The notes under the pieces: generated by a model
The model's database searches: none
What the model saw: only the letters and a program-made list of their open reading frames with translations
Told to the model about the DNA's origin: nothing
NCBI RefSeq assembly: GCF_044324875.1
Contig: NZ_CP172185.1
Strand: one strand, 5' to 3'
DNA from: Escherichia coli
Lineage (GTDB): Bacteria; Pseudomonadota; Gammaproteobacteria; Enterobacterales; Enterobacteriaceae
Length of the DNA stretch: 64,000 bases
Shown here: in pieces, positions 29,162-32,621 of the stretch
Position numbering within the stretch: position 1 is the first letter of the stretch
Layout of the letters: each line of letters starts with the position of its first letter
Translations under genes and position numbers: made by a program

Positions 29162-30643
29162 CTACGCTAACCCCAGGCGCTGAAACTGCTCTGGCGGCGC
29201 ATCATTATCTTTCATTAACTGGATCAGCAACGCGATCATCCGGGCCTCGATCGCATCATCATCAATAGGATGCAACTGCTGCGGATCGTTTTGCAGATCG
29301 AACAGCAAATGCCCAAACTGATTCAGCCCCTTATATTTCTCCTGCGCCGGGATGCGTAACACCTGTAACCCTTTGGTAAAACGAAACGGAGGGGCCAGCG
29401 ATAAAGTCCGCATCTCATCCACCGGATAGCGGCTGTTCATTTTAATCGGCATTAATGTGTAGTTAACAATATCATCCTCACGACCCGGCAGCGCGGCACG
29501 CATATACACATAACGCCCATCGGTTACGTTGACATGACCACTAAAGACACCAAACATCGCCGCGCTGCGTACCGGTTCATCGTGGCTGACCGTTTTCGCA
29601 AGTGGTTGCCCCTGCACATCGGGCGGCACCGGCTGCTGAAAAAAGTCATACAGCGTAGGTGCCCAGTCGATCATCTGCACCAACGCCTGACGACGTTCGC
29701 CTTTTACGCCGCTGCGCGGATCCCAGATAAACAGCGGGTTATTCGCTACCTCGTTGTAATAAGGCATCTGGTTTTTCGCCCACCAGCCATGCTCACCGAG
29801 TAAAAAACCGTGATCGGTGCCGACAATCAGCATGGTGTCTCGCCACAGATCGTGCTCATCCATCAGGTCCAGAATGCGCCCCAGGTTGCGATCGCACATC
29901 GACACCAGCGAGCGATAGCGGCAGCGGATATGCTCCACGGCCTCGTCGCTTTCCAGCACCCGACCACGCGGCCAGTCATAATGCGGCCCGCTCCAGTCAT
30001 CCTCATACAACGAAAGGTACTCTTGCGTTGTGTGAAACGGCTCGTGCGGATCAAACGTTTCGACCTGCAATAACCAGTTATCTTCCGCGTGATTTTTGTG
30101 GATAAAAGCACAACCCGCATCAAAGACTTTGGTTTGTGGAAAATCCGCTTCCTGCTGAATATATTCCCGGTTGGCCCAGTCATGACGCCACAGGCCAGAA
30201 ACACCGCCGCCGGTCTGCTTTTGTGGCACCCTTAGCACCTCGGGAATAGGCGGTTGCGCAACGCTCGCCTGCCAGTGATCGCCTTCCTGGCCGCGCACAA
30301 TCTCCCATGAACTGTAGCGATTATGATAATTCCCGCCGCCATCTTCCCAGTAATGCAAATGATCGCTTATCAGGTGGGTATAGATCCCCGCCTTTTTAAG
30401 CAGCTCCGGCATGGAGTCGTCAAACGGTTCTAACGGCCCCCACTCCCGGTGCAGGAAGTTGCATCGCCCGGTATGCAGCTCTCGCCGGGCGGGCATGCAG
30501 GGCATACTCCCGACGTAGCTGTTTTCAAAGGTGGCGGCATGTGCCGCCAGGCGTTGGAAGTTCTCTGCTTTTGTCAATAAATCGCCATACGGGGGTAAAT
30601 ATCTTTTGTTCAGGCTATCGAACAGGAGAATAATGGCTTTCAT
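29162..30643 (-). CDS. Cys-type sulfatase (alkaline-phosphatase superfamily), apparently cytoplasmic
   Basis: 493 aa; sulfatase signature C-x-P-x-R-x4-TG present as SMPCMPARRELHTG; no N-terminal signal peptide visible; last gene of the PTS operon. Confidence 0.85.
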   Translation of the reverse strand: MKAIILLFDSLNKRYLPPYGDLLTKAENFQRLAAHAATFENSYVGSMPCMPARRELHTGRCNFLHREWGPLEPFDDSMPELLKKAGIYTHLISDHLHYWEDGGGNYHNRYSSWEIVRGQEGDHWQASVAQPPIPEVLRVPQKQTGGGVSGLWRHDWANREYIQQEADFPQTKVFDAGCAFIHKNHAEDNWLLQVETFDPHEPFHTTQEYLSLYEDDWSGPHYDWPRGRVLESDEAVEHIRCRYRSLVSMCDRNLGRILDLMDEHDLWRDTMLIVGTDHGFLLGEHGWWAKNQMPYYNEVANNPLFIWDPRSGVKGERRQALVQMIDWAPTLYDFFQQPVPPDVQGQPLAKTVSHDEPVRSAAMFGVFSGHVNVTDGRYVYMRAALPGREDDIVNYTLMPIKMNSRYPVDEMRTLSLAPPFRFTKGLQVLRIPAQEKYKGLNQFGHLLFDLQNDPQQLHPIDDDAIEARMIALLIQLMKDNDAPPEQFQRLGLA

Positions 30644-30655
30644 TGCTCATCCCTT

Positions 30656-30976
30656 TTATTTATTTAGCAGATGAGGGAAATGCTGCTGGACGACTTCATA
30701 AATCTGCGCGCCAATCGTTTCACCATCCATAATATTTTCAATCGGAATCAGATATTGCCCGTGTTTTGGGTCCAGGCTGACCACGTCGAGTAATTTTTTG
30801 GAAATAGCAAAAATATCCGCCCAATCGGTAAAGCCTCCCACCTCGCCTGCGGCGGTATGTTCCATTTCAACTTTGAACTCATATTTCGTCAGCGCTTTTT
30901 TAACAACCGTTTGTAACATCACGCTACTACCGACACCATAACCACAGACAAACAAAATATTAATTGTATCTTTCAT
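30656..30976 (-). CDS. PTS EIIB component, L-ascorbate (UlaB/SgaB) family
   Basis: 106 aa; N-terminal ILFVCGYGVGSS with the phospho-cysteine typical of this EIIB family. Confidence 0.85.
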   Translation of the reverse strand: MKDTINILFVCGYGVGSSVMLQTVVKKALTKYEFKVEMEHTAAGEVGGFTDWADIFAISKKLLDVVSLDPKHGQYLIPIENIMDGETIGAQIYEVVQQHFPHLLNK

Positions 30977-30997
30977 TTTTAAACCCTTAATAGTGAA

Positions 30998-32341
30998 TTA
31001 TCCCGCGTAAGGACCAAGATGGAATGTTGCAGCGATAAATTTCAGAACTTCACAAATAGCAGGCCATACGGTTGCCCAGTCAAATATTCCTGTCCAGCCG
31101 ACGCCATTTTCAGCAAGCCCGGTTAAAGGAATAGCCCACACCGTACCGAAGGTCTGAATAATACCCAGCAAGAAGGTACAGATAATTACGGAGCGGTATC
31201 CGCCCATTCGGTTTGCTAATACACCAATCGGGCCGCCTGAGAAAAATAAAGGTACAAAGCCTGGCAATACCATAATGGGGCTGTGGATCAGCAATAAGAT
31301 ACCCATCGAGAAAATGGTGCCAAAAGTACAGAAGACAAAACCTAACGTTGCGGCATTGGGTGAAAAAGGCAACAGTGCGGCGACATCGACGGCGGGAATG
31401 GCGTTAGGAATAAAGCGATCCTGCCAGCCTTTAAAAGAACCGTTAATTTCACCGACCATCATGCGCACGCCCTGCAACAGAATGACCATGTACATGGAGA
31501 ACTGTAAGCCCAGATTGATGATATAGATGTACCAGGGTTTACCTTTCGCCATCATCTGGACGTTATCAATGCCCGTGGAGAGCAGGAAACCGCCCACAAA
31601 CAGCGTCATCACAATGGCGATAGCCGTCACGTTGTGGTTAAAAATCGCCAGCCAGCCGGGAAGTTTCAGATTTTCAGCATCGTGCTTTTCCGGGTCGCCA
31701 AATTTATGGGCGAATTTGGAGAAAAACCACAATCCCAACATCTGGTTATGGGCAATAGTAAAACCAGCATCTTTAGTCACTTTGGCGATAGGTTTAACAA
31801 TGAGCGTGGTGGAAAAAGCCCAGAATATACCCGTTAATACCCCGGCGATAATAATCGACGTGGTCCAACTAAATCCTAACCAAAAAACAATTAACCATAA
31901 TACGGCCTGCGAATGTGACACCCCAGTATTACCGGTCAGGAATATCCCTTTGGCACCGGTATAGCGACCAAACAGTACCAGTAACAGGTTGGTAAAAAAT
32001 GCCAGAACAAAAACATAACCTACGTAACCAAAATTATCCCCCAACGCAATTTGCGTTGCGGCTTTCATGGCGTAGGAATCCATTAAATAACCATGAACGC
32101 CATAGGCTTTACTTACAGCCTCTGCTACCGGTTTAAATGTTGCGGAGAATTGAAACCCACCAAATAACACCATCATTAATCCCACCATGGCGCTGACCAT
32201 ACCGGTAATAATTTTTATTGGCGATTTCTTATCAAGGGCATAACCAATGCCCACCAGCAAACCAATTAATATTGCGGGTTCGGTTAAAAACGTTTGAATA
32301 ACATCTATGAATTTGGCAAACATCGTCGGAACGCCCTCCAT
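30998..32341 (-). CDS. PTS EIIC permease, L-ascorbate (UlaA/SgaT) family
   Basis: 447-aa polytopic membrane protein; family assignment by recollection; true start may be the internal Met at 32323. Confidence 0.8.
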   Translation of the reverse strand: MEGVPTMFAKFIDVIQTFLTEPAILIGLLVGIGYALDKKSPIKIITGMVSAMVGLMMVLFGGFQFSATFKPVAEAVSKAYGVHGYLMDSYAMKAATQIALGDNFGYVGYVFVLAFFTNLLLVLFGRYTGAKGIFLTGNTGVSHSQAVLWLIVFWLGFSWTTSIIIAGVLTGIFWAFSTTLIVKPIAKVTKDAGFTIAHNQMLGLWFFSKFAHKFGDPEKHDAENLKLPGWLAIFNHNVTAIAIVMTLFVGGFLLSTGIDNVQMMAKGKPWYIYIINLGLQFSMYMVILLQGVRMMVGEINGSFKGWQDRFIPNAIPAVDVAALLPFSPNAATLGFVFCTFGTIFSMGILLLIHSPIMVLPGFVPLFFSGGPIGVLANRMGGYRSVIICTFLLGIIQTFGTVWAIPLTGLAENGVGWTGIFDWATVWPAICEVLKFIAATFHLGPYAG

Positions 32342-32534
32342 AAGCGTACATTTCCGTTGTCAATGCATGAACCTTCTGCTGACGTTAATAATGCTTCAGA
32401 TATTTTTTATTTTTCGCTAAGCGATGCCTCTGCAGGTATTCGGTAAACGCACTTTAGTAATCAGAACAGTTCATTTAAAGATCTTATTTGATTATTTGTG
32501 ATTTGATTTGCAAAAATAGCGCAATATATAACCA

Positions 32535-32566
32535 TGATCGATCGGTTAATATTAATCGATCGATCA
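32535..32566. promoter_or_regulatory. 32-bp near-perfect palindrome tgatcgatcggttaatattaatcgatcgatca containing four GATC sites; candidate operator or structural element
   Basis: Checked base by base: 15 of 16 pairs complementary; lies about 55 bp past the rlmC stop and about 200 bp upstream of the PTS EIIC start. Confidence 0.5.
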
Positions 32567-32621
32567 CGGTTATTATTTAGAATGGATGTATGCCGGAGTG
32601 ATATTGATTTGAGTGATGTAT

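Follow-up and report, generated by a model that had tools for sequence, protein, structure and literature searches.

We examined a 64,000-nucleotide stretch of Escherichia coli DNA (RefSeq assembly GCF_044324875.1, contig NZ_CP172185.1; hereafter the window) in which three minus-strand genes, encoding enzymes IIC and IIB (EIIC, EIIB) of a phosphotransferase system (PTS) and a sulfatase, lie between artJ and rlmC. The existence of this module and the coupling of its transporter to its sulfatase are well supported by comparison among genomes. We give roughly an even chance to the reading that the operon is an accessory branch of the Ula pathway of L-ascorbate use, serving a sulfated ascorbate, most plausibly L-ascorbate 2-sulfate; for the substrate assignment by itself, our estimate lies between even and somewhat below. 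The argument draws on gene neighborhoods in 41 orthologous loci, on the residues that line the predicted binding pocket of the permease, and on the active site and N-terminus of the sulfatase.

Gene layout and protein families

The operon reads from an UlaA-like EIIC (30998-32341 as annotated, minus strand, 447 aa) through an UlaB-like EIIB (30656-30976, minus strand, 106 aa) to the sulfatase (29162-30643, minus strand, 493 aa), with gaps of 21 nt between EIIC and EIIB and 12 nt between EIIB and the sulfatase. No EIIA or regulator was found among the flanking art, ybjO, and pot genes of the window. An earlier reading of this DNA, made without database searches (the sequence-only reading), had described three co-directional minus-strand genes between artJ and rlmC with no EIIA or regulator nearby. 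The reading frames lie at exactly the positions it gave, the neighbors encode neither function, and profile searches against Pfam and NCBIfam agree with its family assignments for all three proteins.

The EIIC matched the EIIC-GAT family (PF03611, E = 4e-97, residues 18-412) and scored 963 bits on NCBIfam NF009550, "PTS sugar transporter subunit IIC" (cut-off 583). Its score on the UlaA equivalog NF006919 was 321 bits, under the cut-off of 380, and alignment with K-12 UlaA over 432 residues gave 39% identity (E = 2e-100). By these profiles it is a member of the PTS L-ascorbate (Asc) family (transporter class TC 4.A.7; UlaA/SgaT) and a paralogue, not an orthologue, of UlaA. The EIIB matched PTS_IIB (PF02302, 1.9e-10), was 28% identical to K-12 UlaB, and did not reach the UlaB equivalog (43 against a cut-off of 138). 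Its phosphoryl-accepting N-terminal Cys stands in ILFVCGYGVGSS, and the Cys of ILFVCGYG aligns with that of ILAVCGNG in UlaB; by sequence it is an UlaB-like PTS_IIB protein with a phosphorylatable Cys. The sulfatase matched PF00884 (1.7e-27) and SGSH_C.

Conservation of the cassette

Sixty-three loci were fetched from species-representative genomes and scanned by tblastn with the window proteins, the K-12 Ula proteins, the anaerobic sulfatase-maturing enzyme (anSME), arylsulfate sulfotransferase (ASST), and a clostridial EIIA and DeoR regulator. The 41 loci with a sulfatase at least 60% identical to that of the window form the orthologous set, in which neighbors were counted within 10 kb. Sulfatase homologues of 60-69% identity were found in Lachnospiraceae, Clostridia, Erysipelotrichaceae, Bacillus, Neobacillus, and Streptococcus pacificus, and also in Olsenella and Brachyspira. 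Matching EIIC and/or EIIB genes stood directly upstream of the sulfatase in 37 of the 41 loci (two of the 37 are cut by contig ends), and the EIIB gene always lay between the other two. When the look-up was reversed and three EIIC homologues were chosen without regard to the sulfatase (from Brachyspira suanatina, an Erysipelotrichaceae cluster on 113 contigs, and one metagenome contig), all three had EIIB and sulfatase genes downstream. In two protein clusters (P0042, P0073) an EIIA domain is fused to the C-terminus of the sulfatase. Because of this fixed synteny, the reverse look-ups, and the fusion proteins, the triad is, on comparative grounds, one functional unit; the coupling of PTS and sulfatase proposed in the sequence-only reading is thus borne out, the gene order being strictly kept in about 40 genomes. 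More distant homologues, at 57% identity and below (Paenibacillus, Streptomyces, Microbacterium, SAR86, some Brachyspira) had neither PTS nor ula neighbors in the scanned loci and were treated as a different subfamily.

An EIIA_2 gene was present or fused in 15 of the 41 loci and no EIIA was found within 10 kb in the other 26, so that its absence is the majority state and no anomaly in E. coli. DeoR-family regulators occurred in 23 of the 41. Neither an EIIA nor a regulator was found within 10 kb in the loci of eight enterobacterial species. Maturation of the sulfatase to its formylglycine form, which the sequence-only reading had anticipated as a need, is reflected in the neighborhoods of 12 loci: anSME adjoins the cassette in 10 (TIGR03942, 394 bits against a cut-off of 349), and the formylglycine-generating enzyme (FGE) adjoins it in two aerobic bacilli, Neobacillus niacini (PF03781, 8e-80, full length) and Bacillus FJAT-50079 (52% identical to the former). 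This division, the radical-SAM enzyme anSME in anaerobes and the oxygen-dependent FGE in aerobes, is the pattern expected of a genuine formylglycine enzyme, as far as gene content can tell. No formylglycine maturase was found at the E. coli locus; E. coli reportedly matures Cys-type sulfatases through a system that needs neither AslB nor YdeM (Benjdia et al. 2007, cited in PMC6189696).

Arylsulfate sulfotransferase (PF05935) adjoins the cassette in Enterobacter hormaechei, Silvania, Leclercia, and a Lachnospiraceae metagenome-assembled genome (L013:3466-4881, L022:6881-7816, L023:6427-7839, L012:13515-15383). In the enterobacteria the ASST gene is divergent from the cassette, and Leclercia also has an anSME-like gene there. 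The arrangement suggests that the cassette may form part of a wider sulfate-ester island. A second EIIC-GAT/EIIB pair lies near the cassette in several Firmicute loci (L083:331-3161, L012:10738-12467); in Erysipelotrichaceae it comes with a 479-aa protein weakly like sulfoquinovose isomerase (45 bits), a creatininase-family protein, and a HAD phosphatase.

Linkage to ascorbate catabolism

The recurrent catabolic neighbors of the cassette are genes for L-ascorbate-6-phosphate. An UlaG gene was found in eight of the 41 orthologous loci, from Bacillaceae, Clostridia, Oscillospiraceae, and Olsenella. If UlaG is assumed to fall near 1% of loci by chance, the probability of eight or more among 41 is 7e-9, a value computed over genomes that are not independent. 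In Neobacillus niacini (L034) the genes UlaC-EIIC-EIIB-sulfatase-UlaG-UlaD-UlaE-UlaF form a single co-directional cluster. The triad of Bacillus sp. SD088 is transcribed divergently from a DeoR-EIIA-UlaG-UlaD-UlaE-UlaF-Enzyme I cluster, where NCBIfam scores exceed their cut-offs for UlaG (644/306), the decarboxylase (329/250), the 3-epimerase (432/200), and the 4-epimerase (354/257). Bacillus FJAT-50079 (L045) has one UlaR-G-D-E-F set, followed by a different EIIC-EIIB pair and then by the triad with UlaC. Ula genes also stand beside the triad in Clostridium L051, Oscillospiraceae L046, and Olsenella L040, and in two Clostridium genomes (L037, L044) the sulfatase ends an UlaG-epimerase-transketolase cluster that lacks this EIIC. 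The differing gene orders argue for repeated retention of the ula linkage. A 2011 survey of the UlaG family (PMC3219644) recorded a sulfatase gene "inserted" in the ula regulon of Sebaldella termitidis and gave it no functional reading.

Sulfatases also cluster around ula genes in the two bacilli FJAT-50079 and SD088 beyond the cassette itself. The first has a second Cys-type sulfatase, 22% identical to that of the window, immediately after the other EIIC-EIIB pair (L045:6517-7908); the second has another sulfatase beside an ABC transporter, just downstream of the cassette (L011:11195-12514).

No glycosidase, hexosamine, glycan-related, or other dedicated catabolic genes recur beside the cassette among the loci surveyed, and the product must therefore enter an existing pathway. 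The sulfated and possibly host-derived sugar that the sequence-only reading had suggested as substrate, with sulfated hexosamines among its candidates, is unsupported by these neighborhoods, in which no such genes were seen and those for L-ascorbate-6-phosphate return. The ula genes of E. coli and Salmonella sit elsewhere, not at the cassette, and ulaR-ulaC is present in at least 5217 of 5426 E. coli genomes.

The permease pocket, start codon, and upstream region

The contacts of vitamin C reported for E. coli UlaA are T86, Y87, H135, I136, Q139, H194, Q195, D314, I358, F362, and M410 (PMC6048161). In the same work, S59 and R288 hydrogen-bond O3 of ascorbate during translocation (S59 in the occluded state), G58 and G286 are the pivot glycines of the elevator movement, and R288 lies at the EIIB interface. 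The EIIC of the window and all 36 of its orthologues retain both pivot glycines and R288, together with the ligand contacts Y87, H194, D314, and F362; changes at the positions of T86, I358, and M410 are conservative. The residue alignment did not recover the full set of UlaA contacts in the window EIIC. Relative to UlaA, all 36 orthologues carry the substitutions S59 to G, H135 to N, I136 to T, A, or S, Q139 to S or A, and Q195 to N (in the window S59G, H135N, I136T, Q139S, and Q195N). All five positions hold smaller residues than in UlaA, and TM4a has a one-residue insertion. Other EIICs encoded in the same loci retain H135 and I136. The alignment thus points to an ascorbate-type pocket that would be widened in one sub-site, including the enediol side.

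The translation start of EIIC probably needs revision. A conserved GGAGG Shine-Dalgarno sequence overlaps the annotated ATG and precedes a second ATG (M7, MFAKFIDV), and the upstream ATG is absent in Enterobacter, Leclercia, and Silvania. Because the conserved GGAGG stands before it, the second ATG, at 32323, is probably the true start, and the annotated protein (MEGVPTMF...) would then be six codons too long.

Upstream of EIIC lies a predicted promoter or operator block (32450-32516, minus strand). Nothing else was strongly conserved when 12 enterobacterial upstream regions were aligned, and the block is kept even where the cassette sits at another chromosomal site. It contains a CRP-like site (core 32497-32512, TGCAA-N6-TCACA), from which control of the operon by CRP may be proposed, and an inverted repeat with arms AAATAATCA (32489-32497) and TGATTACT (32456-32463). 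The block shares two 8-mers, AAATAATC and TGATTACT, with the ulaA promoter region, in a local match of 19 of 23 bases that is not significant. In the comparison with the upstream region of ulaR, the score was reached by 20 of 500 shuffles.

The sulfatase

The motif C49-M-P-A-R53 lies inside the block SMPCxPARRELHTGR, which is invariant in 13 orthologues from Proteobacteria and Firmicutes; the C-x-P-x-R motif picked out in the sequence-only reading is thus present and conserved. The catalytic set comprises D9, C49, R53, H95, H200, D277, H278, and K290, of which D9, H95, H200, D277, H278, and K290 are likewise invariant and align with the motifs of solved sulfatases. In PAS numbering, we take the metal ligands and catalytic residues to be D13, D317, N318, H115, H211, and K375, and the second sulfate-binding Lys to be K113. 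Residues 4-9 of the window enzyme align with the first beta-strand and the metal-binding Asp, which in secreted homologues come at about residues 30-35. A leader peptide is absent because strand and Asp are already reached at residues 4-9, leaving no space for one, as had been supposed before. On this alignment the protein is a leaderless, cytoplasmic, Cys-type S1 sulfatase of an uncharacterised subfamily.

In profile searches the arylsulfatases SpAS1 and SpAS2 ranked top (about 1e-26), followed by N-acetylglucosamine (GlcNAc)-6-sulfatases, choline sulfatase, and phosphonate monoester hydrolases, and identity to any solved structure was 18% or less. An AlphaFold model of the sulfatase had a mean pLDDT of 71 and a pTM of 0.81. 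Used as a Foldseek query, it retrieved S1 sulfatases alone, at 14-18% identity and with no outstanding subfamily. We dropped the attempt to derive a substrate from the structure, given weak active-site loops and matches at the level of the fold only.

Proposed pathway and alternative explanations

L-Ascorbate 2-sulfate is a stable metabolite of vitamin C that occurs in the plasma and urine of animals. Among human metabolomes, those of plasma, urine, and faeces are reported to contain it (PMC11322087, PMC10416789). Since the sulfatase is genetically tied to a PTS, its substrate is probably a phospho-sulfo compound. In the pathway we propose, the UlaA-like EIIC would bind the sulfated compound, its pocket being larger on the enediol side, and during entry the UlaB-like EIIB would phosphorylate the compound, at O6 if the reaction follows that of UlaABC. 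EIIB itself would receive the phosphoryl group from an EIIA encoded elsewhere, in E. coli and Salmonella most likely UlaC. The leaderless formylglycine sulfatase would then desulfate the compound in the cytoplasm to L-ascorbate-6-phosphate and sulfate, and the former would feed UlaG/D/E/F and release UlaR, of which L-ascorbate-6-phosphate is the effector (PMC5934670). Catabolism, additional EIIA, and induction would thus all be provided in trans by the core ula regulon, which would explain the three-gene cassette of the enterobacteria. Because ula-type genes supply the EIIA and regulator in other genomes, the use of UlaC and UlaR in trans is predicted here. We infer the identity of the substrate, the order of phosphorylation and desulfation, and the recruitment of UlaC and UlaR from these comparisons. 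In Enterobacter-like species and some Lachnospiraceae, ASST could tie the cassette to pools of aryl sulfates, with ascorbate either accepting or donating the sulfate.

Several observations weigh against a sulfated ascorbate as the substrate. No ula gene was found within 10 kb in 33 of the 41 loci, including all of those from Enterobacteriaceae, and the DeoR regulators of the cassettes score only 88-106 bits on the UlaR model (cut-off 244), with higher scores on the GlpR and AgaR models. The five pocket residues that differ from UlaA mean that an ascorbate-like ligand is not guaranteed. In the sulfatase, the position of the classical sulfate-binding Lys is held by an invariant Asp94 (SDHLHYW, as compared with GKWHL or GKTHM), and the model has low confidence in the active-site loops (pLDDT below 50). 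The likeness of the upstream block to the ulaA promoter is not significant, its score being reached by 33 of 500 shuffles. In four lineages ASST adjoins the cassette, a hint of chemistry on aryl sulfates for which the model offers no explanation. Finally, literature searches found no link of a bacterial sulfatase or PTS to ascorbate sulfate. They also found no functional study of the cluster, including under the O157 O-island and STM0883-0886; matches to YdeN were unrelated to it.

One alternative is that EIIC and EIIB carry an unsulfated Ula-type substrate, such as ascorbate or a related lactone or ketoacid, while the sulfatase is a travelling sulfur-scavenging or aryl-sulfate enzyme, possibly working with ASST. 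We consider this unlikely. In its favour, Enterobacter, Leclercia, Silvania, and one Lachnospiraceae locus have ASST next to the cassette, the top profile matches of the sulfatase are arylsulfatases (SpAS1, SpAS2), and the ula cluster of Neobacillus (L034) has this EIIC type as its only permease. A cytoplasmic sulfatase, however, needs an imported substrate, and the sole transporter invariably linked to it is this PTS, with a gene order fixed across four phyla, tight spacing, and EIIA-sulfatase fusions. The second EIIC-EIIB pair within the FJAT-50079 cluster argues for distinct specificities, and the EIIC pocket is systematically remodelled. No more probable, in our judgement, is that the PTS imports a sulfated sugar (hexose or hexosamine) derived from mucin or glycosaminoglycan of the host, which would be phosphorylated on entry and then desulfated in the cytoplasm. 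Carriers are mostly gut-associated bacteria, PTS-plus-sulfatase islands are known in Streptococcus pneumoniae (PMC3302838), and the best solved-structure matches over the C-terminal subdomain of the sulfatase are GlcNAc-6-O-sulfatases (7p24, 5g2v). These matches to the Protein Data Bank (PDB) are nevertheless at most 18% identical and no better than those to aryl, choline, and carrageenan sulfatases. Moreover, neither a glycoside hydrolase nor nag/aga genes nor a deacetylase or deaminase recurs in about 45 loci in which ula genes do recur, and the EIIC, an Asc-family protein, has kept most of the residues that contact ascorbate.

Because Asp94 replaces the classical Lys and this replacement is unexplained, we keep among the alternatives a formylglycine-dependent hydrolase of phosphonate monoesters, phosphodiesters, or 2-phosphates that would act on a phosphorylated ester of the import. 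PehA and the phosphonate monoester hydrolases 2vqr, 2w8s, and 4upk rank among the top matches of the enzyme by sequence, profile, and fold, and the metal site D9/C49/D277/H278 resembles that of phosphonate monoester hydrolases. Matches to true sulfatases are equally good, the change from Lys to Asp cuts positive charge and so disfavours dianionic phosphate monoesters, and the ASST neighbors point to sulfate chemistry. We know of no natural phosphonate or phosphodiester of ascorbate-like compounds, and regard such an activity as improbable. It is more improbable still that the cluster of E. coli and Salmonella is an inactive remnant that has lost its EIIA and regulator. The eight enterobacterial loci do lack both within 10 kb, IS1 has broken up the cluster in a few strains (H72, H73), and most E. 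coli have lost it; but most Firmicute loci have no EIIA gene either, 566 genomes keep the reading frames intact, dN/dS stays at 0.011-0.047 although the alleles have diverged substantially, the promoter block is common to 12 enterobacterial sequences, and the Salmonella cluster has thousands of member sequences. The accessory Ula branch for a sulfated ascorbate is the reading we prefer, at the strength given at the outset.

Distribution and evolution in the Enterobacteriaceae

The cluster was found in 566 of 5426 complete E. coli genomes (about a tenth), at the artJ-rlmC site, always chromosomal and in single copy, and never on a plasmid. Carriers include O157:H7 and a set of extraintestinal and commensal E. 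coli. Two allele classes were distinguished: 146 genomes match the window at 99% identity or more (best match strain 118UI, a urine isolate), and 412 are about 91% identical, among them O157:H7, O55:H7, and O145. The alleles are separated by a dS of 0.43-0.81 in the cluster as compared with 0.13-0.19 in the flanking artJ and rlmC, while dN/dS is 0.047 for the sulfatase, 0.035 for EIIB, and 0.011 for EIIC. Given this high dS and low dN/dS, the genes of the cluster are old and under strong purifying selection. The divergence suggests that the two alleles may represent an old polymorphism or an import from another Escherichia lineage by recombination.

The same rlmC-artJ site is occupied in Salmonella enterica (subspecies enterica, arizonae, and diarizonae), in E. 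whittamii, and in cryptic Escherichia lineages; Enterobacter, Leclercia, Silvania, and Yokenella hold the cluster at other chromosomal sites. In K-12 MG1655, artJ and rlmC are adjacent, as the sequence-only reading had stated, and are separated by a 198-bp spacer (L002:1813-2010) in which REP-type palindromic repeats (GCCGGATAAGGCGTTTACGCCGCATCCGGC and partner) stand where the cluster would be; the spacer shows no trace of the three genes. That reading also called the cluster inserted, which holds only relative to K-12 and probably has the direction wrong, since Salmonella and other Escherichia share the site. The distribution suggests that the cluster already stood here in the ancestor of Escherichia and Salmonella and that most E. 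coli have since lost it. IS1 copies interrupt the cluster in a few E. coli, namely H72 (NZ_CP024147.1) and H73 (NZ_CP083585.1), as ongoing loss. A recent mobile island was considered and rejected: there are no integrase, insertion sequence, or repeat boundaries, and the cluster is never on plasmids.

The EIIC of Salmonella LT2 is STM0884, annotated "ulaA". STM0884 appears in the "function unknown" class of a gene table from transcription profiling of avirulent regulator mutants (PMC2639726), and an intragenic sigma-54 binding site within it is recorded in chromatin immunoprecipitation data (PMC3844500).

Flanking genes and hairpins

On the sulfatase side of the cluster, artJ (plus strand) ends at 29111 and is convergent with the sulfatase gene; on the EIIC side lies rlmC (32622-33749, minus strand). 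Between artJ and the sulfatase gene stands a GC-rich hairpin of 13-14 bp (29122-29149, strand unassigned) that folds on both strands, at -33.7 kcal/mol (z -6.5) and -28.2 kcal/mol (z -5.6). None of 200 shuffles was as stable, and the hairpin is kept in the O145 allele too. It is probably a bidirectional transcription stop that marks the operon's 3' end. Immediately past the rlmC stop comes an AT-rich hairpin (32529-32573, minus strand) with a perfect stem of 17-21 bp, arms TAACCGTGATCGATCGAT...ATCGATCGATCATGGTTA, and four GATC (Dam) sites; as RNA it folds at -27.2 kcal/mol (z = -6.7). This hairpin is kept only in Escherichia and Salmonella, where rlmC sits upstream, and the upstream-region alignment showed none in Enterobacter, Leclercia, Silvania, or Yokenella. 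It is probably a terminator of rlmC or an insulator parting rlmC from the operon, and its GATC cluster could be a methylation-sensitive or protein-binding element. A consensus scan of the region for promoters and terminators returned counts at chance level.

Relation to known systems and significance

The closest known system is UlaABC (SgaTBA), to which the proposed one would add a single cytoplasmic step. The two are alike in their EIIC (39% identity) and EIIB (28%), in the pivot glycines, R288, and most ligand contacts, and in that several Firmicute cassettes lie inside or beside ulaG/D/E/F with an UlaC-like EIIA and a DeoR regulator. They differ in that the cassette proteins fall below the equivalog cut-offs for UlaA, UlaB, and UlaC (the EIIC having its own NCBIfam equivalog, NF009550), that the EIIC has five pocket substitutions and the TM4a insertion, that a cytoplasmic sulfatase always follows, and that the Enterobacteriaceae cassette has no EIIA, regulator, or catabolic genes of its own. 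The S. pneumoniae island SPH1922-1930 encodes a lactose/cellobiose-type PTS, a sulfatase, a sulfatase-modifying enzyme, and a ROK regulator (PMC3302838, PMC3283741). Like the cassette, it links a PTS permease genetically to a sulfatase and its maturase, within an accessory part of the genome of a host-associated species. In contrast to the E. coli cassette, its PTS is of the Lac/Cel and not the Asc family, its regulator is of another kind, and it carries a sulfolactate synthase-like gene and a TauE exporter.

The sulfatase shares its fold, CxPxR motif, metal ligands, and catalytic His/His/Lys with S1 enzymes such as SpAS1/SpAS2 (4upi, 4upl), choline sulfatase (6fny), and those of Bacteroides (5g2v, 7p24). 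Unlike the classical members, it is leaderless, cytoplasmic, and tied to a PTS, and has Asp94 in place of Lys; no solved structure exceeds 18% identity to it. Mammalian arylsulfatases A and B are reported to hydrolyse L-ascorbate 2-sulfate; they are lysosomal and act on the unphosphorylated compound. They would share with the window enzyme the proposed hydrolysis of an enol 2-sulfate and the formylglycine mechanism; the homology is distant, with arylsulfatase B (1fsu) still detectable as a homologue.

At present the cluster is annotated only as "sulfatase / PTS IIB / PTS IIC", despite its presence in O157:H7, O55:H7, O145, Salmonella, and gut Firmicutes. With odds we place a little under even, it would provide the first catabolic route for L-ascorbate 2-sulfate in any microbiota, through a dedicated PTS and a new subfamily of cytoplasmic formylglycine sulfatases acting on ascorbate-2-sulfate-6-phosphate, a phospho-sulfo-lactone with two anionic groups, whose desulfated product both feeds and induces Ula, with a possible link to ASST. 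If that is true, the PTS would gain a new class of substrate, the sulfate ester of an Asc-family substrate, and the S1 sulfatases a cytoplasmic subfamily that acts on a phosphorylated compound. A host-derived metabolite of vitamin C would then join the nutrients that separate pathogenic from K-12-like E. coli.

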